From positions 6,815-70,814 of the forward strand of contig JAIKZI010000007.1 in assembly GCA_024682375.1 (NCBI GenBank): a stretch of DNA of 64,000 nt, given 5' to 3'. This document shows positions 19,552 to 46,067 of this stretch, piece by piece (within the stretch, counting starts at the first letter, position 1; each line of letters begins with the position of its first letter). The DNA is from Lachnospiraceae bacterium. GTDB lineage: Bacteria; Bacillota; Clostridia; Lachnospirales; Lachnospiraceae. A model generated the notes under the pieces. That model made no database searches and was not told where the DNA came from. It saw only the letters and a list, made by a program, of their open reading frames with translations. The position numbers and the translations under genes are program-made.

Positions 19552-21327
19552 TTACATCAAATCTTCATAATGATCTCGAAGCTTTCGCCCTATTTCCTTC
19601 ATGACATTTAAGTTTACTTTTAAAACCTGCCTATCATAAGTATAGAATCCATTGCTCTCATCCTCTACATCCGTAAACTGCGTATAAATAGATCCGCAAA
19701 GTCCACGCTTTATCTCCGGAAAGACCTCATTCACATACAGCTTTTCAATCATATATGTAAGATCCGTCTCTTCCTTTGCCTTATCATATCCATAAGAAGA
19801 TTTCTCATTAAACTTATGCCCATCAATCGGAAGCGAATATCCACCGAATTCCGAAACCACAACCGGTCGATTAGACTCTTCGAAAATAACCGGATGATAA
19901 TAAACATGAAAACTATCTACATCCGATTTATCCTGCCAAAACCATCCCGAAGTAGAATCTAAAATTCTCGTATCATCTAAAGCCTTCACAATTTCATACA
20001 TCTTATCGCTATCAAACTGTCCCCAGCCTTCATTGAAAATCGTATAGTAGCAAACCGAAGTGAAATTATAAAGCCTATTTATAGTCTCCTCCATACATTC
20101 AATAAATGCCCTCTTTGTCTTATGAGATATTGGTCGATTCCTATCATCCTTCTTCTGCTTGCCCATATTTGCAAGCGCTGTATCACGGATAAAAGAATAC
20201 TTGCCATTATTCACCATATCCTGCCAGACAATCATTCCAATCCTATCGCATGCTTCATAGAAAAAAGTAGGCTCGACCTTGATATGCTTCCTTATTGTAT
20301 TAAATCCGAGTTCTTTCATCTTACGGACATCATCGTAATAATCCTTCTCACAATTAGGTGTATAGATGCCCTCAGGGAAATACCCCTGATCTAATACTCC
20401 ATGAAAGAAATACGGCTTTCCATTTAAAAGGATTCTCTTCTTCTCTTTTACGGTCTTTATAGAAAGAGTACGAAGTCCAAAATAACACTTCACACTGTCA
20501 TATGAACCATCGCCCGAAAACCCTTCCTTTACGATATCATCATACGATTTTCCATCAAGTGCATTAAATGCACGAATCTTTAAATCATAAAGATTCGGCT
20601 CTTCAGGTGTCCATAATTTTGGGCTGTCGATGTTAATCCTTTTTTCAATAAAACCATCGATACTATCCATATATTTAGAGAGTCTGACTGTCTTTACAAC
20701 CTTTTGATTCTCACTATTGCTAGGATATAGAATCTGCACATCAAAGTATGCTGCCTCCGAATCAATCTTTAAATCGATACCCTTTAAATCCGGTTTTATC
20801 TTCACATCTTTTATATAGTCTTCCCAAACGCTCTCAATCCAGACACTCTGCCAGATACCGGAGATAGGCGTATACCACATGCCCCCTCTCTTCCTTCTCT
20901 GCTTTCCATAAGGATAAATATGAGAAAGATGATCTACCACGCGTACTCTTAGAGAGTGTGTTTCATCTGGAACTATAAAGGATGTAATATCAAAGGAAAA
21001 AGGAGTATAACCACCTGCATGATGACCTACATATTTTCCATCGATATATACTTCTGCAATCTGATCTACTGCATCAAAGTGCAGAATAATCTTATCCCTT
21101 ATAAACTCTTTTGGAATTTTAAAATTTCTTTTATAAGTGAATTCTTCTGGAACATGATGTTTTTTATAGTTTGAATTTTTTGATTGAGGAGGAAACGGAA
21201 CTATAATCCCCTTATCCCATTCTCCATTTAAACTTATATAAGAATCCCTAATCATATCCCTTCTTGGATATATATTAAATGGTACTTTTTCGACTTTCGT
21301 GCCCATTTCTAGAGTAGATTTTGTCAT
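19552..21327 (-). CDS. Glycoside hydrolase family 2
   Basis: LNGEW, HFDAVD, GGYTPF, GVLDQGYFPEG, FNEGW (acid/base), VVSEFGG (nucleophile). Confidence 0.9.
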   Translation of the reverse strand: MTKSTLEMGTKVEKVPFNIYPRRDMIRDSYISLNGEWDKGIIVPFPPQSKNSNYKKHHVPEEFTYKRNFKIPKEFIRDKIILHFDAVDQIAEVYIDGKYVGHHAGGYTPFSFDITSFIVPDETHSLRVRVVDHLSHIYPYGKQRRKRGGMWYTPISGIWQSVWIESVWEDYIKDVKIKPDLKGIDLKIDSEAAYFDVQILYPSNSENQKVVKTVRLSKYMDSIDGFIEKRINIDSPKLWTPEEPNLYDLKIRAFNALDGKSYDDIVKEGFSGDGSYDSVKCYFGLRTLSIKTVKEKKRILLNGKPYFFHGVLDQGYFPEGIYTPNCEKDYYDDVRKMKELGFNTIRKHIKVEPTFFYEACDRIGMIVWQDMVNNGKYSFIRDTALANMGKQKKDDRNRPISHKTKRAFIECMEETINRLYNFTSVCYYTIFNEGWGQFDSDKMYEIVKALDDTRILDSTSGWFWQDKSDVDSFHVYYHPVIFEESNRPVVVSEFGGYSLPIDGHKFNEKSSYGYDKAKEETDLTYMIEKLYVNEVFPEIKRGLCGSIYTQFTDVEDESNGFYTYDRQVLKVNLNVMKEIGRKLRDHYEDLM

Positions 21328-21397
21328 AAATATTTGCCCCTTATTAACCCAAAATAAAATACCAATAGAAGCTAAAACTTCTATTGGTATTATAACA

Positions 21398-23029
21398 TTA
21401 TTTTGTGACAGGAAGGATAATCTTATAAAAAGTTCCCATTCCGTTTATTTTTCTATCTGAAATAGATATCTTTCCACCGTGAGCTTCTACTATTGACTTT
21501 GCAATAGAAAGTCCGAGGCCTGTACCCTGACCATTGCTTCTTGCATTTTCTGCAACTACAAATGGTTCAAAAATCTTCTCTTGAAGTTCTTTAGGAATAC
21601 CAGGGCCATTATCTCCGATTTCAATCTTCATGATATCTTTTCCATAACGAAGAGTAAAATAAATAGTCGTTCCCACATCTGTATAGCGGACAGCATTTGA
21701 AATGATATTTTCAAATACTCTCTTCAGCTGCATTTTATCAAATTTAACATATACTACTTCTTCAGGAATCTCTACATCGACTTCATATCCACCTACTGTA
21801 AGCTCCTGATATTTAGATGCAACATATTCTCTGAAATATTCACATATATCATCCTTCTCCAAATTATATTTGAACTTCGGATGTTCAAGTCTTGAAAAAT
21901 CACTAAAAGAATTAATTAGTTCAACCAGAGTAGAAGTCTTTTGACTAATGATTTCCAAATATTTTTGTCTTTCATATTCTGGAATGAGGCCATCACGCAT
22001 AGCATCCACATAACCTTGAATAACCGTAATAGGAGTTTTCAAATCATGTGAAATATCAGCTAACATCTTCTGACGAGCATCTTCCGATTTCTTTAACTGT
22101 AATTCCATATTATTAAACGTTTCTACAACCTGATTAAATTCCTTTGTACCTTGCTGGGTATTAATCTGTTCCCTATCGCCTCTCGCGAAACCATTCATAG
22201 CAATTCTTAGCTGTTTCAAAGGCTTTCTCATCTTAGAAGATATCCTAAAGATAGAGAAGAATACAGCAATCATAACCATGATCACATATGTAAATACAAG
22301 AATTATATGTCGTCTTAAAATGATACCCTCAACCTTTTCATAAGGACTTTCGTAGTGAATGAGAAGATATCTGGTATCGCCAGAATTAGTCTTAAACTTA
22401 TACTTCTGAAGAATTAGTCCATACTCATACTTCATATTTTCAGCTGAACCCATCAGATACTCAAGCTCTTTTTCGGTAATCTTGCTGCCTTCAAAATCCA
22501 TATTTGTATAGATAATTTCATTCTTTGAATTTATAACTGTGATACCGTTTACAGCCTCACCTGTCTTTTCATCATATGCAAATCTGATAACCAAATAACC
22601 ATATTCACCTTTTTTCGTAATAGGATAAATTGTATAGTTTACATCACGATTCAAGTCTTCGATGTACTTCGTTGAATATTCATCATATTTATTATGATAT
22701 GAGGTGTTAGAAGAATAATAAATCTTTCCGCTATCATCGATTACTTCGATGTAACCTTTCTTTCCGATATAGTTTTTCAACACAATATCGCTGTATTTTT
22801 CTTCTTTTAACTTTTCCTTCTGATCGATAATCTTTTCAGTCTTTACCTTTCTATAAGTCGTCTCGGAAATCTTCTGACCAGCTTTTATAAAGAAAAAAGT
22901 CAAAATAGTAACCATTACAATCAACATAAAAAGGTCTTTAAGCAAAAAGAGATAGAAGCTAGGAGCTTCCTCTCTTCTCTTTTTTATGTATGAAATTATA
23001 TTAAAGCGTTTCTTACAGTTTTTCCTCAT
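21398..23029 (-). CDS. Sensor histidine kinase (HAMP, HisKA, HATPase)
   Basis: DISHDLKTPIT, FENIISNA, DNGPGI, GTGLGL; two TM segments. Confidence 0.95.
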   Translation of the reverse strand: MRKNCKKRFNIISYIKKRREEAPSFYLFLLKDLFMLIVMVTILTFFFIKAGQKISETTYRKVKTEKIIDQKEKLKEEKYSDIVLKNYIGKKGYIEVIDDSGKIYYSSNTSYHNKYDEYSTKYIEDLNRDVNYTIYPITKKGEYGYLVIRFAYDEKTGEAVNGITVINSKNEIIYTNMDFEGSKITEKELEYLMGSAENMKYEYGLILQKYKFKTNSGDTRYLLIHYESPYEKVEGIILRRHIILVFTYVIMVMIAVFFSIFRISSKMRKPLKQLRIAMNGFARGDREQINTQQGTKEFNQVVETFNNMELQLKKSEDARQKMLADISHDLKTPITVIQGYVDAMRDGLIPEYERQKYLEIISQKTSTLVELINSFSDFSRLEHPKFKYNLEKDDICEYFREYVASKYQELTVGGYEVDVEIPEEVVYVKFDKMQLKRVFENIISNAVRYTDVGTTIYFTLRYGKDIMKIEIGDNGPGIPKELQEKIFEPFVVAENARSNGQGTGLGLSIAKSIVEAHGGKISISDRKINGMGTFYKIILPVTK

Positions 23030-23739
23030 AGCTTATTTCCATCTTCAAATTTATATCCCAGTCCTCTGACCGTGATTAGATATTTAGGATTCTTAGAATC
23101 CTCTTCAATCTTTGTTCTGAGATTTGAGATATGAACTATAACTGTACTCTCATCCGCAATAAAGAATTCACCGTTTAGGTATTCATAAATCTGTACCTTC
23201 GTATAAATCCTTCCTGGATTCTGCATAAGGAGGATGAGGATTTTCAATTCTGTAGGTGTAACACTGATTTCCTCATCATTCTTATATAGTTTCATCTTCT
23301 TCTGATCAAGTCTAAGCTCTCCTATGCAGATATCAGACATCTCATCTTCATCACTAAAAGCAGGATTTAACTCATAGAATCTTCTAAGCGAAGACTTCAC
23401 TCTTGCAATTACTTCAAGAGGGTTGAAAGGTTTTGTAAGATAATCATCTGCTCCAATATTTAAGCCAATAATCTTATCACTATCCTCTCTTTTTGCTGAG
23501 ATAATAATAATAGGGAAATTATATGACTCTCTAGCTTTCTGAATGAGTTCATACCCATTCATCTCAGGCATCATAATATCAAAAAGAGCTAAATCTATAG
23601 TCTCATTTTCTAATATATCAAGTGCCTTCTTACCATTCGGAGCAGAAAGCACTTCATATCCTTCGTTCTCCAAATAGAGTTTCAAAACTCCTACTATATC
23701 CGAATCATCTTCTGCAATTAAAATGCGATATCTTTTCAT
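23026..23739 (-). CDS. OmpR family response regulator
   Basis: LIAEDD, DIMMPEMNG, GADDYLTKPF, TVRGLGYK; ATGA overlap with the kinase. Confidence 0.96.
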   Translation of the reverse strand: MKRYRILIAEDDSDIVGVLKLYLENEGYEVLSAPNGKKALDILENETIDLALFDIMMPEMNGYELIQKARESYNFPIIIISAKREDSDKIIGLNIGADDYLTKPFNPLEVIARVKSSLRRFYELNPAFSDEDEMSDICIGELRLDQKKMKLYKNDEEISVTPTELKILILLMQNPGRIYTKVQIYEYLNGEFFIADESTVIVHISNLRTKIEEDSKNPKYLITVRGLGYKFEDGNKL

Positions 23740-23763: not shown

Positions 23764-23991
23764 TTAATCTTCGGAAAGTCTGTTTACCATCTTTAAAATA
23801 GCTTCTGCAGAGTTAAAGTTCTCTGGTGTCATTTCAGAAGCATCGATAGAGATATCATACTCTTCCTCGAGTTCGCCAACTAGAGAAATGATTCCAAAAG
23901 AATCTAAAAGATGATCATCAATAAGTGCTGTCTCATTTTCAAAATCAATACTGTCGTCGATGTCGTTTAAGATTTCTAGTAATTTTTCCAT
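23764..23991 (-). CDS. Acyl/aminoacyl carrier protein (DltC-like)
   Basis: 75 aa, acidic, LLDSFGIISLV phosphopantetheine-Ser motif. Confidence 0.9.
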   Translation of the reverse strand: MEKLLEILNDIDDSIDFENETALIDDHLLDSFGIISLVGELEEEYDISIDASEMTPENFNSAEAILKMVNRLSED

Positions 23992-24007
23992 TTTAATACC
24001 TCTTTCT

Positions 24008-25201
24008 TTATTTCATAAATGGTGTATTTAATCTGTAACTTTCCTGCTTTTCTCTAACAAGCTGTAAGCCATCTTCTTCACTATAGAATGCAATTCCTGG
24101 AAGTTCATGACTGAGGAATAGAGACATACCCTCATAAACAGAATACGCTCCTACACGCTCAAATACAATAATATCGCCACAATCCACTTCTTCAGTTTCA
24201 AAATCAGAAACCAAAACATCATTAGTAGTACAAAGTGAACCATATAGAGAATAATGCTTCTTTACATCAGAACCTTCTCTATTCTTTAACACACGAAGGT
24301 GTGGTAAATACATTCCTCGAAGCTGTCCATCATAGTTTATCTGATGAATACCACCATCGCAAATAATATAATTCTTACCTGCGCTCTCCTTTACATCACG
24401 AATAGTTACTGCATAGTAACCACAGTTAAATGCGAGAGCTCTTCCCATCTCAAGTGAAATATTTCCCTTCCACTTCATATTGAGAAGCAGATTCTTAAAC
24501 TCATACAAATTCTCAGGAGTTGTAACTGTCTCCTCCTGATCCACGAAATATGGAACTCCAAATCCTGTTCCGTATTCCAAATTCAAAACTTTCTTTCCAG
24601 TTTCTTCTTCGATTCTGGAAAAAAATTCGTCCAGCTTGTTAATTTCCTTCTCATGCTTTCTTAATTTATGCTTCTGAGTACCAGTAAAATAATGAATACC
24701 GTAGAAGTTAATATTAGAAAACTCATCACTCTTAAGAAGAGAAATGATAGTATCCTCATCCATACCAAACTGTCCACAGTTCAATCTGAAATATACATTT
24801 ATATGAAGATTAAGATCTTTGGCAATCTTCTGCATAACCTTTACCTGGTTAGGAGATTCCGCTGTATATACGCCCTCCTCCTTACAGTACTCAATAGTCT
24901 CTCTCATATCTTCTTCTTTTTTCAAAACTCCTGAAATAAGAAGTTTAGATGGAGAAATCTTTAATTCCTTACAGATTAAGAATTCCCCATAAGAACATAC
25001 TTCGATTCTATCTGTATCATTTACTGAAACCTGTGTAAGAAAAGGATTTGTCTTCATACAGAAGTTTACTTTTATCTCGTTTCCAACCTGACGCTTCAAA
25101 TAATCGAAGCGCTCGTGGAAAGCATCTAAATCAAATACATATAGGGGTGATCCATATTCTTTGACTGCGTTTTTTAATGTGCTATCTGTGAGGGTTCTCA
25201 T
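24008..25201 (-). CDS. PLP-dependent fold-type III decarboxylase (LysA/BtrK/VinO-like)
   Basis: CMKTNP (PLP Lys), HYFTGTQ, EYGTGFG, EMGR, GSLCTTND, VGAY; these diverge from canonical LysA motifs. Confidence 0.85.
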   Translation of the reverse strand: MRTLTDSTLKNAVKEYGSPLYVFDLDAFHERFDYLKRQVGNEIKVNFCMKTNPFLTQVSVNDTDRIEVCSYGEFLICKELKISPSKLLISGVLKKEEDMRETIEYCKEEGVYTAESPNQVKVMQKIAKDLNLHINVYFRLNCGQFGMDEDTIISLLKSDEFSNINFYGIHYFTGTQKHKLRKHEKEINKLDEFFSRIEEETGKKVLNLEYGTGFGVPYFVDQEETVTTPENLYEFKNLLLNMKWKGNISLEMGRALAFNCGYYAVTIRDVKESAGKNYIICDGGIHQINYDGQLRGMYLPHLRVLKNREGSDVKKHYSLYGSLCTTNDVLVSDFETEEVDCGDIIVFERVGAYSVYEGMSLFLSHELPGIAFYSEEDGLQLVREKQESYRLNTPFMK

Positions 25202-26730
25202 CCAATAACCTCCAAGTCATTTAAAACTTTTCTATCTACTTTTCCATTCTTATTTAGAATGAATTCCTTTACATGGTTAAATCTGTTTGGAACCATGTAA
25301 ACCGGAAGCTTCTCTTTAAGTTTGAGATGTAGTTCCTTTTTTTCCATAGAGCCTGTATAGAAGGCTGTGATTCTTTTCTTTGCAGCATCATAAGTGCAAA
25401 TACATCTTTCGATTCCATCGATTGCATTTACGCCACGCTCAATTTCCTCAAGCTCGATTCTATGTCCCATATGCTTAATCTGGAAATCCTTACGACCTGC
25501 GAAATACATCTGTCCATCGTCTTCGATTACTGCCATATCTCCAGTTCTATACATACGAACTACACTTCCATCTGCTTCTGTATAGTTTACGAAATGAGCC
25601 TTTGTCTGCTCTTCATTGTGGTAATAACCAATTGCAAGAGATTCACCTGTTACACAGATTTCTCCTGTAATGCCAGGCTCTGTAATAACCTTGTCATTTT
25701 CATCTAGAAGACGAACCTTTCTTCCCTCGAAAACTTTTCCAAGAGGAAGTCTCTCATCTTTTTCATACTTTCTTTCAAGTTCGAAATATGTACAGTTACA
25801 TGTGATTTCTGAAGGGCCATACAGATTTACGAAACGTGCTTCTGGAAGGTTCTCCTGCCAAATAAGAAGCTGCTTCATCGGCATAACTTCACCTGAGAAC
25901 ATAACTCTCTTTATCTCTGTAGGAACTCTATAGCTGAATCCCTTTAGACCAGAAATAATACAAAGCGCTGAAACTGCCCAAGTCAGATTAGTAACATGGT
26001 TGTCACAAATATAGTCAAGAAGTCTAGCTGGAGTTGAGAAATACTCTCTAGGGATTAGTACTAGACTTGCTCCAGAAAAGTATGCTGTAACAATATCCTT
26101 TATTGATACATCGAAATCAAATGGAGCCTGATTTCCGATTACATCATTTTCTGTGAATCCAAAAGTATCAACAAAATGATTGATAAAGTCCATTGCATTT
26201 CCATGAGAAATAAGAACACACTTAGGAGTTCCTGTAGAACCCGATGTAAAAATTCCATATAGAGGAGTCTCTCTGTCTATTTTCTCTCTCATCTCAGGAA
26301 GAAGAGTTGAATACTCATTTACATCCATCTCGGACATAAGAATAATCTCACCCTGATAGCCTGTCTCAAGGAATCTATCCTTTAATTCATCACTTAATAC
26401 TACAGCCTTTGGTTCAAGAACATCTAAAATCTTATTAATTCTATCTGCAGGCTGTTCTGGATTGATATAGGTGTAAAAAGCACCTGCGTAGTTGATACCG
26501 AGAATACTTGCAAGAAGTGATACTGTCTTTTCGGAAAAAACAGCAACCGGATAGCCATCTTCTGATGGATTTACTCTGTCTAGAATTACACTCGCATACT
26601 TCTTTGCTCTATCTTCTAATTCTTCCCAAGTAATTCTGCTATTTGGATCTATAGCAGCCTCTCTCTTAGGAAATCTTGATACTGTATTTTCAAAAACATC
26701 TAGTATTGAATTAAAATTCTTTAATACCAT
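25198..26730 (-). CDS. Stand-alone amino acid adenylation enzyme (DltA/VinN-like)
   Basis: FTSGSTGTPK, FDFDVS, NLYGPSE, YRTGD, GRKDFQIKHMGHRIELEEIE, NKNGKVDR. Confidence 0.93.
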   Translation of the reverse strand: MVLKNFNSILDVFENTVSRFPKREAAIDPNSRITWEELEDRAKKYASVILDRVNPSEDGYPVAVFSEKTVSLLASILGINYAGAFYTYINPEQPADRINKILDVLEPKAVVLSDELKDRFLETGYQGEIILMSEMDVNEYSTLLPEMREKIDRETPLYGIFTSGSTGTPKCVLISHGNAMDFINHFVDTFGFTENDVIGNQAPFDFDVSIKDIVTAYFSGASLVLIPREYFSTPARLLDYICDNHVTNLTWAVSALCIISGLKGFSYRVPTEIKRVMFSGEVMPMKQLLIWQENLPEARFVNLYGPSEITCNCTYFELERKYEKDERLPLGKVFEGRKVRLLDENDKVITEPGITGEICVTGESLAIGYYHNEEQTKAHFVNYTEADGSVVRMYRTGDMAVIEDDGQMYFAGRKDFQIKHMGHRIELEEIERGVNAIDGIERCICTYDAAKKRITAFYTGSMEKKELHLKLKEKLPVYMVPNRFNHVKEFILNKNGKVDRKVLNDLEVIG

Positions 26731-26761
26731 TTTAAAACTCCAAATCGTATTCCAATTTATA

Positions 26762-27772
26762 TTACTTGTAAAAATCCTTTAGCTTAGAAAGGAAAGCAAC
26801 CTCTTTGTTGTTTTTATTCTCTTCAACTTTGAACTTAGCTTTGTCAAATCTCTTATCGTAGTTATTTAACAATTTGTCCCATCTTAAAGCTGTAGTTCTA
26901 TCCTGTGTAAATCCAAGATTAAAATTCTTTACTAAATACTTTCCGATATAAGCTGTTGTCTTTTCTGCGCCTGAACAATTCAGATGATCACCCTTGTCTC
27001 TAGTATCCTTAGACCAGTCAATGTTCAATTCATCAAGTTTCATATTTAGATCTACATACTTAAGGCCTTCTTTTTTAGAAAGGGCAACAAGTGCATTATG
27101 TTTCTTATAGTTATAATTCTTAGGTGATGGAGCTGAGTACAAAACAAGCTGTGCTCCATTTTCTCTACACATTTCTTCGATATCATGAAGAGTATCTATA
27201 TTAGTCTGCTCGATTTTCATTCTCTTAGAAGTTCTAACCATATAATCTCCACCCTTATAAGGCTTTACCTTTGTAGAGATTGAGAAACCTTTAAACGTCT
27301 TTCCACGAAGCTCCATAAAAGGTGACTTCCATACATTGTGTTCCTTTAAAAGCGGAAGACTCTTATAAATCTTTCTTGAGATGAAATCCTGTGTTTCATT
27401 CTTCTTTGCTTCAAATCTGAAAAGATTATTAGTCTCAAGCATTACAACCTTTGGCTTCTGGTTTTTAAGTGCCGTTCTAAGAACTGATTTTGACTCAGTT
27501 AATTTAGCTCCAGGCTGACCTGCTGCATATGTTGTAAATCCATAGTCTTTCCAAATCTGCATAGGGGATACTGAAGTATAGCTCTCACTATCACCGATTA
27601 CGATTACATCCAAACTATTTTTATGTTCACATGCTAACTTCGCATGAACACCATTTTTTCCATTTGCAAGATGATTTCTCTCCATGAATTTAGATGTCAT
27701 CATTGTTCCTGGTAAAACAAGTAATAAAGCCAAAATCACGAAGAACAAAATATTCTTTGCTGTCTTCTTCAT
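26762..27772 (-). CDS. Membrane-anchored SGNH-fold protein (DltD/AlgJ/PatB-like acyltransferase)
   Basis: N-terminal TM anchor, IGDSES block I, DKGDHLN DxxH block; start ATG 27772 with GAGGTG RBS. Confidence 0.8.
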   Translation of the reverse strand: MKKTAKNILFFVILALLLVLPGTMMTSKFMERNHLANGKNGVHAKLACEHKNSLDVIVIGDSESYTSVSPMQIWKDYGFTTYAAGQPGAKLTESKSVLRTALKNQKPKVVMLETNNLFRFEAKKNETQDFISRKIYKSLPLLKEHNVWKSPFMELRGKTFKGFSISTKVKPYKGGDYMVRTSKRMKIEQTNIDTLHDIEEMCRENGAQLVLYSAPSPKNYNYKKHNALVALSKKEGLKYVDLNMKLDELNIDWSKDTRDKGDHLNCSGAEKTTAYIGKYLVKNFNLGFTQDRTTALRWDKLLNNYDKRFDKAKFKVEENKNNKEVAFLSKLKDFYK

Positions 27773-27784
27773 ATTTCTCACCTC

Positions 27785-29374
27785 TTAGAAACCTGCATAA
27801 ATCAAATCTGCTGGTTGGTAACCAACTCCGTATGCACCAAAGATTACGATTGACATAATAAGTGCGTAATAAATAACCCATCTTCTAGCTGTTGGAAGCT
27901 TAGGAATGTTTTCAAACATCTCTGGATTCTTTTCAAGTCTTACATCTACAGCAAATACTACAAACATGCCAAGAAGTACAACTGCAAAATCTCCTATATC
28001 AAGTCCAACTTCAAGAATTCTTCCTGCGAAGAATCCACCGTCCCATGGACCTCTGAACATGTTCTTCATCATAGTTGCAAACTGTCCAAGTGTCTCAGCT
28101 CTAAATAGAACCTCACCTACAAGGATGATCACCCATGTTCTTACCATTCTAAAAGCACTTACAAACTTTCCATTTATATCAAATCTAAGTGAATTCCAGA
28201 ACTTCTCACCTGCTGGTTCAAGCATAACCTCTAGAAGCAGGATTACAAAATAATAAACACCGTACATAATGTATGGAACCTTCGGTCCATGCCAAAGTCC
28301 GTTCAACATCCATACGGGGAAAAGTGCAATTGCTGATGTAACAACTGTTGTTACATATTTACCTGCATGTTTACGTCCGAATTTGTTCCACTTCTTCATG
28401 ATGTGTGAAGTTGATACAGGATAGAAAATATAATTCTTAAACCATGTACCAAGTGATATATGCCATCTTCTCCAGAACTCAGCTGCGCTCTTTGCAAAGA
28501 AAGGCTGTCTGAAGTTTTCCGGAAGCTTTATATTAAAAATTCTTGCTGAACCGATTACGATATCGATTGTTCCTGAGAACTCCATGTAAAGCTGAATCGT
28601 TGTAGCAAGCATCGCAATAAACATCATCAAGCCATTGTATGAATTTGTTGGCTTATAGAAAATATTTACAGCTGTATTCAATCTATCAGCGATAAGCATT
28701 CTCTTGAAAAGTCCCCAGACGATTCTTATAAATCCCTGTACGAAAGAATCTCCAGTGATTGGCTTACCTTCAAATAGCTGCTCATTCACATCTGTCCATC
28801 TGCAAATAGGACCTTCCATAAGTGTTGGGAAGAAAATCATAAATAATAGAAGCTTTAAGATATTTCTCTCTGCCTCTATTCTCTTCCAGTAAACATCTAA
28901 AAGATATCCAATAGCCTGCATTGAATAGAAAGAGATTCCGATTGGAACCAAAATCTTAAGTGCATGTAAATCACTAGATTTAAAAACGCTATTTATAATT
29001 TCAATCGTAAAGTTTGTATATTTAAGACCAGCAAGGATTGCTACAACTCCAACAATTGCAAGCTTTACTACATGAGAAGCTTTCTTCTCTGCAGCTTTTT
29101 TTATACCCTTCTTGTCGATCTCTATACCTTTTGCTTTTGCATCACTGATTTGTAATTTTGCTTTTCCGAATATATCCTCAATACAAATTCCGCCGAAATA
29201 TGTGATTGCAGTTGTTATAAGTGCCCAATAAATTAGCTGTCTACTTATAATCATGAAAAAAGCAATTGAAGCTGCCAAAAGAGACATAAATCTATATTTC
29301 TTTGGAGTCAACTGGTATAAAATCATTGCCGCCGGCAAAAATAATACAAAATACGTGTTAGTGTTATAAGCCAT
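27785..29374 (-). CDS. MBOAT family membrane-bound O-acyltransferase (DltB/AlgI-like)
   Basis: PIGISFY, FFPTLMEGPI, ENFRQPF, FWRRWHISL, NGLWHG (catalytic His). Confidence 0.94.
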   Translation of the reverse strand: MAYNTNTYFVLFLPAAMILYQLTPKKYRFMSLLAASIAFFMIISRQLIYWALITTAITYFGGICIEDIFGKAKLQISDAKAKGIEIDKKGIKKAAEKKASHVVKLAIVGVVAILAGLKYTNFTIEIINSVFKSSDLHALKILVPIGISFYSMQAIGYLLDVYWKRIEAERNILKLLLFMIFFPTLMEGPICRWTDVNEQLFEGKPITGDSFVQGFIRIVWGLFKRMLIADRLNTAVNIFYKPTNSYNGLMMFIAMLATTIQLYMEFSGTIDIVIGSARIFNIKLPENFRQPFFAKSAAEFWRRWHISLGTWFKNYIFYPVSTSHIMKKWNKFGRKHAGKYVTTVVTSAIALFPVWMLNGLWHGPKVPYIMYGVYYFVILLLEVMLEPAGEKFWNSLRFDINGKFVSAFRMVRTWVIILVGEVLFRAETLGQFATMMKNMFRGPWDGGFFAGRILEVGLDIGDFAVVLLGMFVVFAVDVRLEKNPEMFENIPKLPTARRWVIYYALIMSIVIFGAYGVGYQPADLIYAGF

Positions 29375-29483
29375 TTTTTAATTCCTCATATATTACATTT
29401 TTTTGACCATAGATAATATATCCTATGAAAATAAAGACAGCATTAATTAAACATTAAGATTTCTTAATAATCTTTTTATACAC

Positions 29484-29497
29484 GTTGCACAGGCAAC
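29484..29497. promoter_or_regulatory. Palindrome GTTGC-N4-GCAAC, candidate Crp/Fnr-type operator
   Basis: Perfect 5-4-5 inverted repeat in the divergent MBOAT / Crp intergenic region. Confidence 0.45.
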
Positions 29498-29540
29498 AAA
29501 ATTAGTGTATCCTTATATAAATTTGTTTTAAAAGAGGGAT

Positions 29541-44112: not shown

Positions 44113-45321
44113 ATGGAACAGAAATTCTATCCATTACTTTTCGGTGGTGATATCAATGTATATTCACTTGCTCGCGCATTTCACGAAGAATACAAAATCA
44201 AATCTACAGTTTATGGAAAGTATAAATCTGGCCCAGCCGCTAGAAGCTCCATCATCGACTACCATGCATGTGTCGACAATGAAAAACTAGATACATTCCT
44301 ATCTATAGTAAGAAATTTTGCAGAAGAACATAAAGATGCAAAGGTTCTAGTAATCGGTTGTAGCGATTCTTACGTTCAGCTCATTTCTGAAAACAAAGAT
44401 AATCTTCCAGAGAACTGTATTGCTCCTTACATCGATTCTAAGATGCTAAATAATCTAGTTCAGAAGGAATACTTCTACAATCTTTGTGACAAGTATGATA
44501 TCGATCATCCTGACACATTCATATATAAGAAAGAAATGGGACATGATTTTGAAATCCCATTCAAAGCGCCTTTCATCTGTAAGCCTTCTTGCTCTATCAC
44601 ATATTGGGAGCATCCTTTCGAAGGCAACGACAAAGTCTTCATCGTAAACTCACGTGAAGAACTTCTCGACATCCTAGACAGATGCTACGCTGCAGGCTAT
44701 CCGGATTCTATGATTATTCAGGATATGATTCCTGGTGATGATACTTATATGAGAGTTTTGACTTCATACTCAGACAAAAACGGAAAAGTCAAAATGATGT
44801 GCCTGGGTCATACACTTCTTGAAGAACACACTCCTCATGGAAGTGGTAACCACGCTACTATCCTCACAGAGTACAATAAAGAGCTTTGCCTCAAGGTAAA
44901 AGCCTTCCTCGAAGACATCGGTTATGTAGGATATTCAAACTTCGATATCAAATACGATGAACGTGATAACAAATTCAAGTTCTTTGAAATCAACTGCCGC
45001 CAGGGCCGTTCAAACTATTATGTAACTGGTGCAGGATTCAATGTTGCAAGATACTTTGTAGAAGACTATATTTTTAATAAAGATATGGACTTTACAATTT
45101 GCAAGAACGAATCTCTTTGGAGTGTCGTTCCTCTAAAAGTTGCAAAAGACTATATAGTTTCAAAGTATCACGACAAGATGAATCAGCTTGTGAAAGAGCA
45201 CAAATTCTCTAACTCACTTTGCTATTCAAAAGACCATAGCCTTCTCCAGAAGATCTGGGTAAAACACAACCTGGCTCGTCACAAGAAGAACTATGCTACT
45301 TACTACGAAAAGAAAAACTAA
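44113..45321 (+). CDS. D-aspartate ligase (ATP-grasp, Aslfm/YxbA-like)
   Basis: GGDINVYSLARAFHE, QDMIPGDD, EINCRQGRSNYY; adjacent to a racemase. Confidence 0.85.
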   Translation: MEQKFYPLLFGGDINVYSLARAFHEEYKIKSTVYGKYKSGPAARSSIIDYHACVDNEKLDTFLSIVRNFAEEHKDAKVLVIGCSDSYVQLISENKDNLPENCIAPYIDSKMLNNLVQKEYFYNLCDKYDIDHPDTFIYKKEMGHDFEIPFKAPFICKPSCSITYWEHPFEGNDKVFIVNSREELLDILDRCYAAGYPDSMIIQDMIPGDDTYMRVLTSYSDKNGKVKMMCLGHTLLEEHTPHGSGNHATILTEYNKELCLKVKAFLEDIGYVGYSNFDIKYDERDNKFKFFEINCRQGRSNYYVTGAGFNVARYFVEDYIFNKDMDFTICKNESLWSVVPLKVAKDYIVSKYHDKMNQLVKEHKFSNSLCYSKDHSLLQKIWVKHNLARHKKNYATYYEKKN

Positions 45322-45350
45322 GATTAGTTCTAAAAAAAGAAGAGATTTTT

Positions 45351-46067
45351 ATGAGAGATTTTAAAGGTCAGAAACTAGGAATACTTGGCGGAATGGGACC
45401 ACAGGCCACTCAGGTCTTATACCAGTGGATTTTAGATCGCACAGACGCGAAAAAAGATCAGGAGCACATCCCAACCGTAATTTTAAGCGATACAATCATG
45501 CCAGACCGAACTTCTGCTATCCTATCCGGTAACACAAAAGAAGTTTTCGAAAAGATGCTCGACGATTGTAAAACCCTCGAATCAGTCGGCTGTTCCTGCA
45601 TCGCAATTCCTTGCAATACATCACACTACTTCGCAGATGACATTCAAAAGGAAATAAACATTCCAATCATCCACATGCCTCGCGAAACAGTAAAGCGAAT
45701 CAAGGAAAACAAGTCTCATAAGAAAGTAGCCATCCTTGCAACGGATGGTACCCTAGCAACCGGCATCTACAAAAAAGAATTAGAAAAAGCCGGCCTAATC
45801 CCTTATGAACCGACCGACGAAATCCAAAAAACAGTCATGAGCTTAATCTACGATGAAATCAAGAAAGGGGAAAAAGGTAACCGCCAGACTTTCTCCGTTA
45901 TAGATAAAGCCATCCACGAAGCCGGTTGCGACTGCGCCATCCTCGGCTGCACCGAACTCTCCGTCTACAGAGAGTACCACAACCTTCCAGCGTACTACAT
46001 CGACGCCATGGAAGTCCTCGCCGAAAGCGCAATCAAATTCTTCGGCCTAACACCAATAGAAGTATAA
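45351..46067 (+). CDS. racD: Aspartate racemase
   Basis: GILGGMGP, AIPCNTSH and LGCTELS (two catalytic Cys). Confidence 0.9.
   Translation: MRDFKGQKLGILGGMGPQATQVLYQWILDRTDAKKDQEHIPTVILSDTIMPDRTSAILSGNTKEVFEKMLDDCKTLESVGCSCIAIPCNTSHYFADDIQKEINIPIIHMPRETVKRIKENKSHKKVAILATDGTLATGIYKKELEKAGLIPYEPTDEIQKTVMSLIYDEIKKGEKGNRQTFSVIDKAIHEAGCDCAILGCTELSVYREYHNLPAYYIDAMEVLAESAIKFFGLTPIEV

Follow-up and report, generated by a model that had tools for sequence, protein, structure and literature searches.

The region examined here lies in a 64,000-nucleotide stretch of DNA from a Lachnospiraceae bacterium (GenBank assembly GCA_024682375.1, contig JAIKZI010000007.1, positions 6,815 to 70,814; referred to below as the window), which has a G+C content of approximately 37%. 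Five co-directional open reading frames are packed on its minus strand between positions 23764 and 29374, and together form a candidate operon for the amino-acylation of the cell envelope. They encode, in order, an MBOAT (membrane-bound O-acyltransferase), an anchored SGNH-fold protein, a stand-alone amino-acid adenylation (A) enzyme, a fold-type III pyridoxal phosphate (PLP) decarboxylase and a small carrier protein. This five-gene set had been proposed in a preliminary description of the DNA, and was borne out by the family matches and by the open reading frame listing, in which every gene boundary falls at the same position.

The MBOAT gene (27785–29374) encodes 529 aa with the catalytic-histidine motif FWRRWHISL and a C-terminal LIYAGF, and matches PF03062 with an E value of 2.7e-11. 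It is followed after 3 nt by the gene for a predicted membrane-anchored, extracytoplasmic SGNH-fold transferase (26762–27781, 339 aa), in which the predicted nucleophile is Ser65 within a GDS motif; translation may in fact begin at an ATG that lies three codons past the GTG given as the start. A further gap of 31 nt leads to the gene for the A enzyme (25198–26730, 510 aa), which matches PF00501 at 197 bits and TIGR01733 at 316.9 bits. The stop codon of this gene and the start codon of the decarboxylase gene (24008–25201, 397 aa; PF02784 and PF00278) share the letters ATGA, as the preliminary description had stated and as was read directly from the sequence (...GGATGAGA...). The carrier gene (23764–23991, 75 aa) begins 16 nt beyond the decarboxylase gene and has its phosphopantetheine-attachment serine in the motif LLDSFG. 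All five genes are on the minus strand.

The transcription unit appears to reach past position 23764. A gene for an OmpR/VanR-type response regulator (23026–23739, minus strand, 237 aa; PF00072 and PF00486, 242 bits to the VanR family model) starts 24 nt downstream of the carrier gene and overlaps by 4 nt the gene for a sensor histidine kinase (21398–23029, minus strand, 543 aa; PF00512 and PF02518), whose sequence contains two hydrophobic segments around an extracytoplasmic domain of approximately 185 aa. An intrinsic terminator-like hairpin with a 15-bp stem and a T-run is located 6 nt past the kinase stop codon (21358–21391, minus strand), and no comparable hairpin was found in the interval between the carrier and regulator genes. 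Because the regulator and kinase genes follow without an intervening terminator and a strong one stands after the kinase gene, the unit is read as seven genes, extending through a VanR/VanS-like pair to the terminator at 21391–21358. At the other end lies an intergenic region of 166 bp (29375–29540), the presumed promoter site, which is common to the operon and a divergent Crp/Fnr-type regulator gene; a promoter scan of this region gave no better result than shuffled sequence. A GH2-family glycosidase gene (19552–21327, minus strand, 591 aa) lies directly downstream of the terminator, and no link between it and the unit was seen in other genomes.

Conservation and distribution of the operon

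A scan of species-representative genomes gave 438 stretches encoding a relative, of which the best 80 loci, spanning 42–76% decarboxylase identity, were taken for synteny. Homologues of the decarboxylase number in the thousands, mostly unnamed or labelled "diaminopimelate decarboxylase" or "alanine racemase", in metagenome-assembled genomes of Lachnospiraceae. Orthologue clusters of the decarboxylase, A enzyme, SGNH protein and MBOAT were represented at 79, 75, 71 and 66 of the 80 loci, respectively, several of the missing orthologues being explained by loci that end at contig ends. Nearly all loci hold the five genes together, and the synteny on which the preliminary interpretation leaned therefore holds, at approximately 66–79 of 80. 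As the clusters recur across the 80 loci, the five-gene arrangement is not due to chance. Two gene orders occur, MBOAT-SGNH-A-decarboxylase-carrier and A-decarboxylase-carrier-MBOAT-SGNH; the order A-decarboxylase-carrier is kept at every locus that is not cut off, often with the start-stop overlap.

The 80 loci come from Lachnospiraceae, Mogibacterium, BVAB1, Lactimicrobium, Mediterraneibacter, Extibacter, Merdimonas and others, and the operon as a whole is conserved among Firmicutes of the gut, rumen, mouth and vagina, where its bearers number in the hundreds. Cultured bearers include Extibacter muris DSM 28560, Merdimonas faecis BR31, Mediterraneibacter glycyrrhizinilyticus, Mogibacterium kristiansenii and Lactimicrobium massiliense. 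The response regulator and kinase genes directly follow the acylation genes at approximately 35–40 loci, and several loci contain two or three SGNH paralogues. At three loci (L005, L013 and L014) the A-decarboxylase-carrier triad stands alone, and the genome of L013 has an MBOAT-SGNH pair elsewhere. At L005 (2923–6392), from a metagenome relative and lacking the MBOAT-SGNH pair, the triad adjoins genes for a PcsB-like cell-wall hydrolase (coiled coil and Hydrolase_2) and a MatE/Polysacc_synt-type flippase.

The 10-kb flanks of the 80 loci contained no further gene in more than 11 loci, and those that recurred were housekeeping genes. No conserved racemase, mutase, second or protecting ligase, glycosyltransferase or LtaS was present in these flanks, and the substrate should therefore be a common metabolite; nor was any polyketide synthase (PKS), nonribosomal peptide synthetase (NRPS) or lipid-synthesis gene conserved near the operon. 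Of 401 genomes sampled evenly across the order, 19 (from 14 of 181 genera) encode the decarboxylase and 2 a DltA-grade ligase, neither of which was among the 19. Mutual exclusion of the operon and the Dlt system was considered and set aside, since with an expected overlap of approximately 0.1 the observed overlap of 0 is uninformative. One related genome (G016, contig C23, 23924–25003) contains an operon-type decarboxylase that scored 136 bits against the lysA model, within the range of the family. No DltA-like A enzyme was found in that genome at E 1e-40, and its decarboxylase may pair with a different kind of ligase.

Decarboxylase, adenylation enzyme and carrier

Among the NCBIfam models the decarboxylase matched TIGR03099 (exosortase-A-associated decarboxylase) best, with 164 bits where the cut-off is 478, and its score against the lysA equivalog was 144 bits against a cut-off of 297.9. 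The exosortase-A (PEP-CTERM) pair TIGR03098/TIGR03099 likewise combines an uncharacterised AMP-ligase with a fold-III decarboxylase, and such pairs are adjacent genes in proteobacterial exopolysaccharide loci. The present A enzyme differs from that ligase, scoring 165 bits against TIGR03098 (cut-off 592), and is closer to NRPS and DltA domains. No exosortase/PEP-CTERM gene is among the genes annotated at the locus, where no search was aimed at them.

In the family alignment of the decarboxylase the catalytic set is invariant, comprising the PLP-binding Lys50, His170, the Gly loop, E251/R254, Cys324/Asp328 and Tyr353, and the EMGR motif, the decarboxylase C-terminal domain and the Cys/Asp proton-donor motif are all intact. 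A profile built from 20 family members and searched against the PDB ranked BtrK, the L-glutamyl-[BtrI carrier protein] decarboxylase, first (171 bits, E 3e-49), with diaminopimelate (DAP) decarboxylases at no more than 144 bits. SbnH, a decarboxylase with a citryl conjugate as its substrate, reached 141 bits and stood above most DAP decarboxylases. The motifs DGG[I/M]H and FL(S/G)H..P are common to the family and BtrK, and their LysA counterpart is DAGMND..RP, the Arg of which contacts the distal end of DAP. The AlphaFold2 model of the decarboxylase (mean predicted local distance difference test score, pLDDT, 90.1) also had BtrK (7ru7) as its top Foldseek match, at a template modelling (TM) score of 0.86 that barely parts it from the DAP decarboxylases (0.84) and is not discriminating. 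BtrK acts on a gamma-glutamyl-S-carrier, a substrate of the kind proposed here, and shares approximately 21% identity with the decarboxylase; in butirosin biosynthesis loading is by an ATP-grasp ligase instead of an A domain, and the product goes to an aminoglycoside.

A maximum-likelihood tree, constructed without VinO and FlvO, placed the decarboxylase family in its own clade (99/98), while the genuine LysA proteins of congeners fell within a separate LysA clade (96/99). The phylogeny proposed at the outset thus set the enzyme cleanly outside LysA and did not place it beside BtrK. The decarboxylase is nevertheless the only lysA-like gene in this genome (1.9 Mb, 94% complete), in which dapA, dapF and a true lysA were not detected, so that there is no recognisable route to DAP. 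Four genomes of the same genus contain a true lysA (approximately 430 bits) together with the operon paralogue (approximately 130–143 bits), and six others contain the paralogue only. The preliminary description had suggested looking for a separate lysA; none is present here, yet a housekeeping LysA was ruled out for the decarboxylase by its score of 144 bits against 298, by the tree, by the coexistence of both genes in congeners and by the missing dapA and dapF. With its invariant catalytic set, these results lead us to read the decarboxylase as an active enzyme with a substrate other than free DAP. The non-detection of dapA, dapF and true lysA would also imply lysine auxotrophy and probably a Lys-type, non-DAP peptidoglycan in this lineage.

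The A enzyme is the only A domain in the genome. Its specificity code, mapped by core motifs through an alignment with LgrA and so motif-based rather than structure-based, is D235 V236 K239 S278 M299 S301 L322 C330 N331 K517. Among 81 orthologues the code DVKS[M/L]SLCNK is almost invariant, position 299 being Met or Leu in 78 and another residue in 3, and position 322 varying in one; Lys239 is invariant. The score against the DltA equivalog TIGR01734 was 281 bits, with a cut-off of 559.85. The DltA pocket (L198, C269, V301; PMC11253843) differs from the code at positions 236, 301 and 330, with Leu236 and Cys301 where the A enzyme has Val236 and Ser301. In silico the enzyme thus does not resemble a D-Ala-activating one, a preference for D-Ala being one of the outcomes that would have refuted the preliminary interpretation. 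The position of Lys239 beside the amine-binding Asp235 would imply a second carboxylate on the substrate at the time of adenylation, which argues that adenylation precedes decarboxylation.

The precedent of the VinN/VinL/VinO proteins of vicenistatin biosynthesis, cited in the preliminary description, is correct, and FlvN of fluvirucin biosynthesis, which acts on Asp, is a further one. Both the Vin proteins and FlvN/FlvL/FlvO join an A enzyme to a PLP decarboxylase and a carrier that stands alone, and in these pathways Asp or 3-methyl-Asp is loaded through the beta-carboxyl and alpha-decarboxylated on the carrier (PMC11284099). They differ from the present operon in that they serve polyketide biosynthesis in actinomycetes and draw on a second, protecting ligase (VinM), on VinK as transfer enzyme and on a PKS; none of the three is present here. 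Bulkier pocket residues are found in beta-amino-acid A domains, namely F231 and S299 in VinN and the A236V substitution in TycA, and Val236 and Ser301 of the A enzyme resemble them (PMC11253843). The pocket as a whole appears to be of its own type, and loading through the side chain would follow by analogy with the Vin, Flv and Btr systems.

The carrier scored 20.1 bits against PF00550, just short of the cut-off of 20.8. Against the DltC models it gave an E value of 1.1e-9 (NF003464) and scores of 38 (cut-off 68) and 24 (cut-off 52). Of 79 carrier orthologues, 68 have the serine motif LDSF.

A beta-alanyl group is favoured over 4-aminobutyryl as the product, because a free 4-aminobutyryl thioester should cyclise to a lactam and no protecting ligase is conserved in the operon. 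In the butirosin pathway the 4-aminobutyryl intermediate is guarded by gamma-glutamylation. The A enzyme could also draw on D-Asp, since a gene of the Asp-racemase family lies in the window (45351–46067, plus strand; TIGR00035, 228 bits), and the same product would be expected from it. The racemase-family gene directly follows a 402-aa open reading frame that has no Pfam or NCBIfam match. The layout of this pair (44113–46067) recalls that of the D-aspartate ligase and racemase that build D-Asp cross-bridges in Lys-type peptidoglycan.

Membrane transferases and acceptor

The MBOAT scored 135 bits against the DltB model TIGR04091 (cut-off 375), which covers only residues 98–424 of its 529. The tail beyond the model, residues 425–529, comprises approximately 105 residues and closes with LIYAGF. 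WRRWH is present in all 68 MBOAT orthologues and the extreme C-terminus [DE][LM]IYAGF in 67 of them. The FxYxxF motif is an acyl shuttle whose Tyr bears D-Ala in the case of DltX and acetyl in that of PatA; outside the Dlt systems the motif is part of the MBOAT itself, where it lies on two additional C-terminal helices (PMC12148441). A separate DltX microprotein would have no room in the operon, where all gaps are 31 nt or less. The preliminary description had spoken of a dlt-like operon with an MBOAT; the MBOAT itself was confirmed, and is of the PatA/AlgI type with a fused C-terminal Tyr shuttle motif, not of the DltB type.

The resemblance to PatA/PatB, AlgI/AlgJ/AlgX and WssH/WssI, which O-acetylate peptidoglycan, alginate and cellulose, extends to the MBOAT catalytic histidine, to the C-terminal FxYxxF-type motif (here [L/M]IYAGF, the first residue being Leu or Met and not Phe) and to a separate anchored SGNH transferase with GDS. 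Systems with the fused motif are stated to use acyl-CoA, acetyl-CoA in the case of the PatA/AlgI type, and to have no carrier protein (PMC12148441), whereas an A enzyme, a carrier and a decarboxylase are encoded here. Because the fused motif coexists with these three dedicated proteins, the operon appears to be a hybrid of two known architectures.

The SGNH protein had no Pfam or NCBIfam match, and none to the DltD family. Its AlphaFold2 model (mean pLDDT 91.2) contains an N-terminal helix of residues 2–27, taken as the membrane anchor, and the top Foldseek matches in the PDB were all SGNH/GDSL esterases, with target-normalised TM scores of approximately 0.65. Across 29 orthologues G63-D64-S65, D262 and D265 are invariant and H266 is nearly so.

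Two further loci outside the window encode related proteins. The first, on contig C30 (4289–6835), encodes a second MBOAT of 476 aa that is 28% identical to the operon MBOAT and ends in FMYFSF; its neighbour encodes a protein of 365 aa in which a GDS motif occurs. Neither a carrier nor a ligase is encoded close by, and the pair is probably an ordinary PatA/PatB-like O-acetylation system. The second, on contig C23 (25700–26671), is a stand-alone SGNH paralogue of 323 aa, 40% identical to the operon protein and located beside a 905-aa fused ABC ATPase/permease, which may be an extra acceptor-specific transferase.

Proposed pathway, alternatives and significance

The seven-gene unit probably, though far from certainly, serves the carrier-dependent amino-acylation of a cell-envelope polymer. 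The A enzyme would adenylate an amino-dicarboxylic acid, for which aspartate (L or D) is the best candidate and glutamate a weaker one, the side-chain carboxyl being activated and then thioesterified to the phosphopantetheine arm of the 75-aa carrier. The invariant Asp235 would hold the amine and the invariant Lys239 the free alpha-carboxylate. The coupled fold-III PLP enzyme would then strip the alpha-carboxyl from the tethered substrate, like BtrK, VinO and FlvO, giving beta-alanyl-S-carrier, or 4-aminobutyryl-S-carrier if the substrate were Glu. The MBOAT, through its WRRWH histidine, would move the acyl group across the membrane to the Tyr of its own LIYAGF motif, from which Ser65 of the anchored SGNH protein would take it and esterify a hydroxyl of an envelope polymer. 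Candidate acceptors are a lipoteichoic acid (LTA)-like polymer, a wall polysaccharide and peptidoglycan. Expression of the unit is probably adjusted to envelope stress by the VanR/VanS-like pair, which would be co-transcribed with it. The joining of carrier-bound decarboxylation to Dlt-like export, put forward in the preliminary description, is thus supported by the synteny, by the non-LysA and non-DltA character of the two enzymes, by the ranking of BtrK first in the profile search and by the lack of a separate dltA; what we infer concerns the substrate and the acceptor, the sequence of the steps with their Tyr and Ser intermediates, and the physiology.

Several observations weigh against this pathway. 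In canonical Glu-activating NRPS domains Lys239 binds the side-chain carboxylate of an alpha-loaded Glu, and the code alone is therefore no proof of side-chain loading. The shortened beta13-beta14 loop of VinN is not evident in the A enzyme, which has no gap against LgrA in the alignment, and the basic residues of VinN are at positions 330 and 331 (PMC11253843), where the A enzyme has Cys330 and Asn331, its own basic residue being Lys239. In the tree BtrK and SbnH fall in a polytomy with long branches, so that sisterhood of the decarboxylase to BtrK is not resolved, and the fold search separates BtrK from the DAP decarboxylases by the narrow difference given above. The choice of Asp over Glu is one of chemical reasoning only. 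With respect to the acceptor, the one LtaS-like protein of the genome is a distant match (43 bits, where the cut-off is 970), and there is no TagF-type polymerase.

The occurrence of Lys239 in alpha-Glu-activating NRPS codes, the missing loop shortening and the loose tie to BtrK in the tree would all fit a scheme in which export is the same, the decarboxylase acts on a free metabolite, either for supply or as a side reaction, and loading of an acidic amino acid through the alpha-carboxyl, its side-chain carboxylate being held by Lys239, leaves alpha-glutamyl or alpha-aspartyl esters on the polymer. We consider this unlikely, as the A-decarboxylase-carrier order and its frequent overlap are kept even where the triad is apart from the MBOAT, and both the profile and fold searches rank BtrK first, the former with SbnH above most DAP decarboxylases. 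A diamine or lysine product would moreover have no evident role in the operon, and an anionic or zwitterionic ester would be odd for a Dlt-like system with its own envelope sensor.

The carrier chemistry could also be as proposed and the acceptor a membrane lipid, a glycolipid or a secreted small molecule, as in an aminoacyl-lipid or natural-product route. The lack of a canonical LtaS and of TagF in the genome is in keeping with this, as is the fact that MBOATs acylate lipids in other organisms, and the two or three SGNH paralogues at several loci suggest several acceptors. This too is given little probability: the characterised bacterial FxYxxF MBOAT-SGNH pairs all acylate LTA, peptidoglycan, alginate or cellulose (PMC12148441), and the conserved neighbourhood contains no gene of a PKS, NRPS or lipid-synthesis pathway.

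Within fold III the decarboxylase falls on the branch of the DAP decarboxylases, and Lys239 could bind a distal carboxylate, as would be expected if meso- or LL-DAP were loaded by one alpha-carboxyl and decarboxylated distally on the carrier, giving lysyl-S-carrier and lysylation of the polymer. This is very unlikely, since the operon is intact in a genome without dapA, dapF or lysA, the LysA motif DAGMND..RP is replaced by a BtrK-like DGGIHQ, and lysine could be loaded directly with no need of a decarboxylase. Finally, a divergent Dlt D-alanylation system, with the PLP protein as an alanine-racemase-like supplier of D-Ala or a housekeeping LysA within the operon, would account for the names given to some homologues, for the many that match PF01168, and for the lack of any other lysA-like gene or canonical dlt in the genome, but is highly improbable given the non-DltA code with its invariant Lys239, the DltA, DltB and DltC scores far below cut-off, the retained decarboxylase C-terminal domain and Cys/Asp motif, the position outside the LysA clade, the true lysA of congeners and the missing DAP pathway. 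A canonical Dlt system elsewhere in the genome was also ruled out, there being no second A domain and no DltA match above 281 bits; this answered the question, raised in the preliminary description, of a separate dltABCD.

The proposed amino-acylation pathway can be set beside the Dlt pathway (DltA, DltC, DltB, DltX, DltD), with which it shares a stand-alone A enzyme, a carrier, an MBOAT and an anchored SGNH-fold transferase in one operon. In both, the aminoacyl group would go from a cytoplasmic thioester to an extracytoplasmic polymer, and in both a two-component system is linked to the operon, dltRS occupying a similar position in group B streptococci. The present operon differs by the fold-III PLP decarboxylase inserted between the A enzyme and carrier genes, by an A code with Val236, Lys239 and Ser301 that is not of the D-Ala type, and by falling below the cut-offs of all four Dlt models. 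It also has no DltX microprotein, the Tyr motif being fused to a longer MBOAT, and its SGNH protein has no match to the DltD family. The operon would combine MBOAT-SGNH envelope acylation of the Dlt/PatAB type with on-carrier decarboxylation. Full-text literature searches found no description of the operon, nor of beta-alanyl, 4-aminobutyryl or other omega-aminoacyl esters on teichoic acids or wall polymers, in agreement with the earlier statement that no characterised example was known.

D-alanylation is the textbook means by which Firmicutes tune surface charge, resistance to cationic peptides and host signalling. If the pathway proposed here is correct, it would add an ester-linked omega-amino acid to the known decorations of the Gram-positive envelope, and would be the first use of the on-carrier decarboxylation of natural-product pathways in primary envelope biogenesis. 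Carrier-fed MBOATs would then not be confined to DltB plus DltX, whereas the current literature treats MBOATs with a fused motif as users of acyl-CoA (PMC12148441). More broadly, and only as a tentative proposal, many gut, rumen, oral and vaginal Clostridia, nearly all of them Dlt-less, might render the envelope cationic by means of beta-alanine in ester linkage, formed on a carrier protein from aspartate and delivered by a carrier-fed PatA-type MBOAT that has the tyrosine shuttle fused to it. From general ester chemistry, beta-alanyl esters should resist neutral to alkaline hydrolysis better than alpha-aminoacyl esters such as D-alanyl. The charge modification would therefore be chemically distinct and more persistent, would be switched on by its own envelope-sensing two-component system, and could affect both the resistance of these bacteria to host cationic peptides and their recognition by the host.

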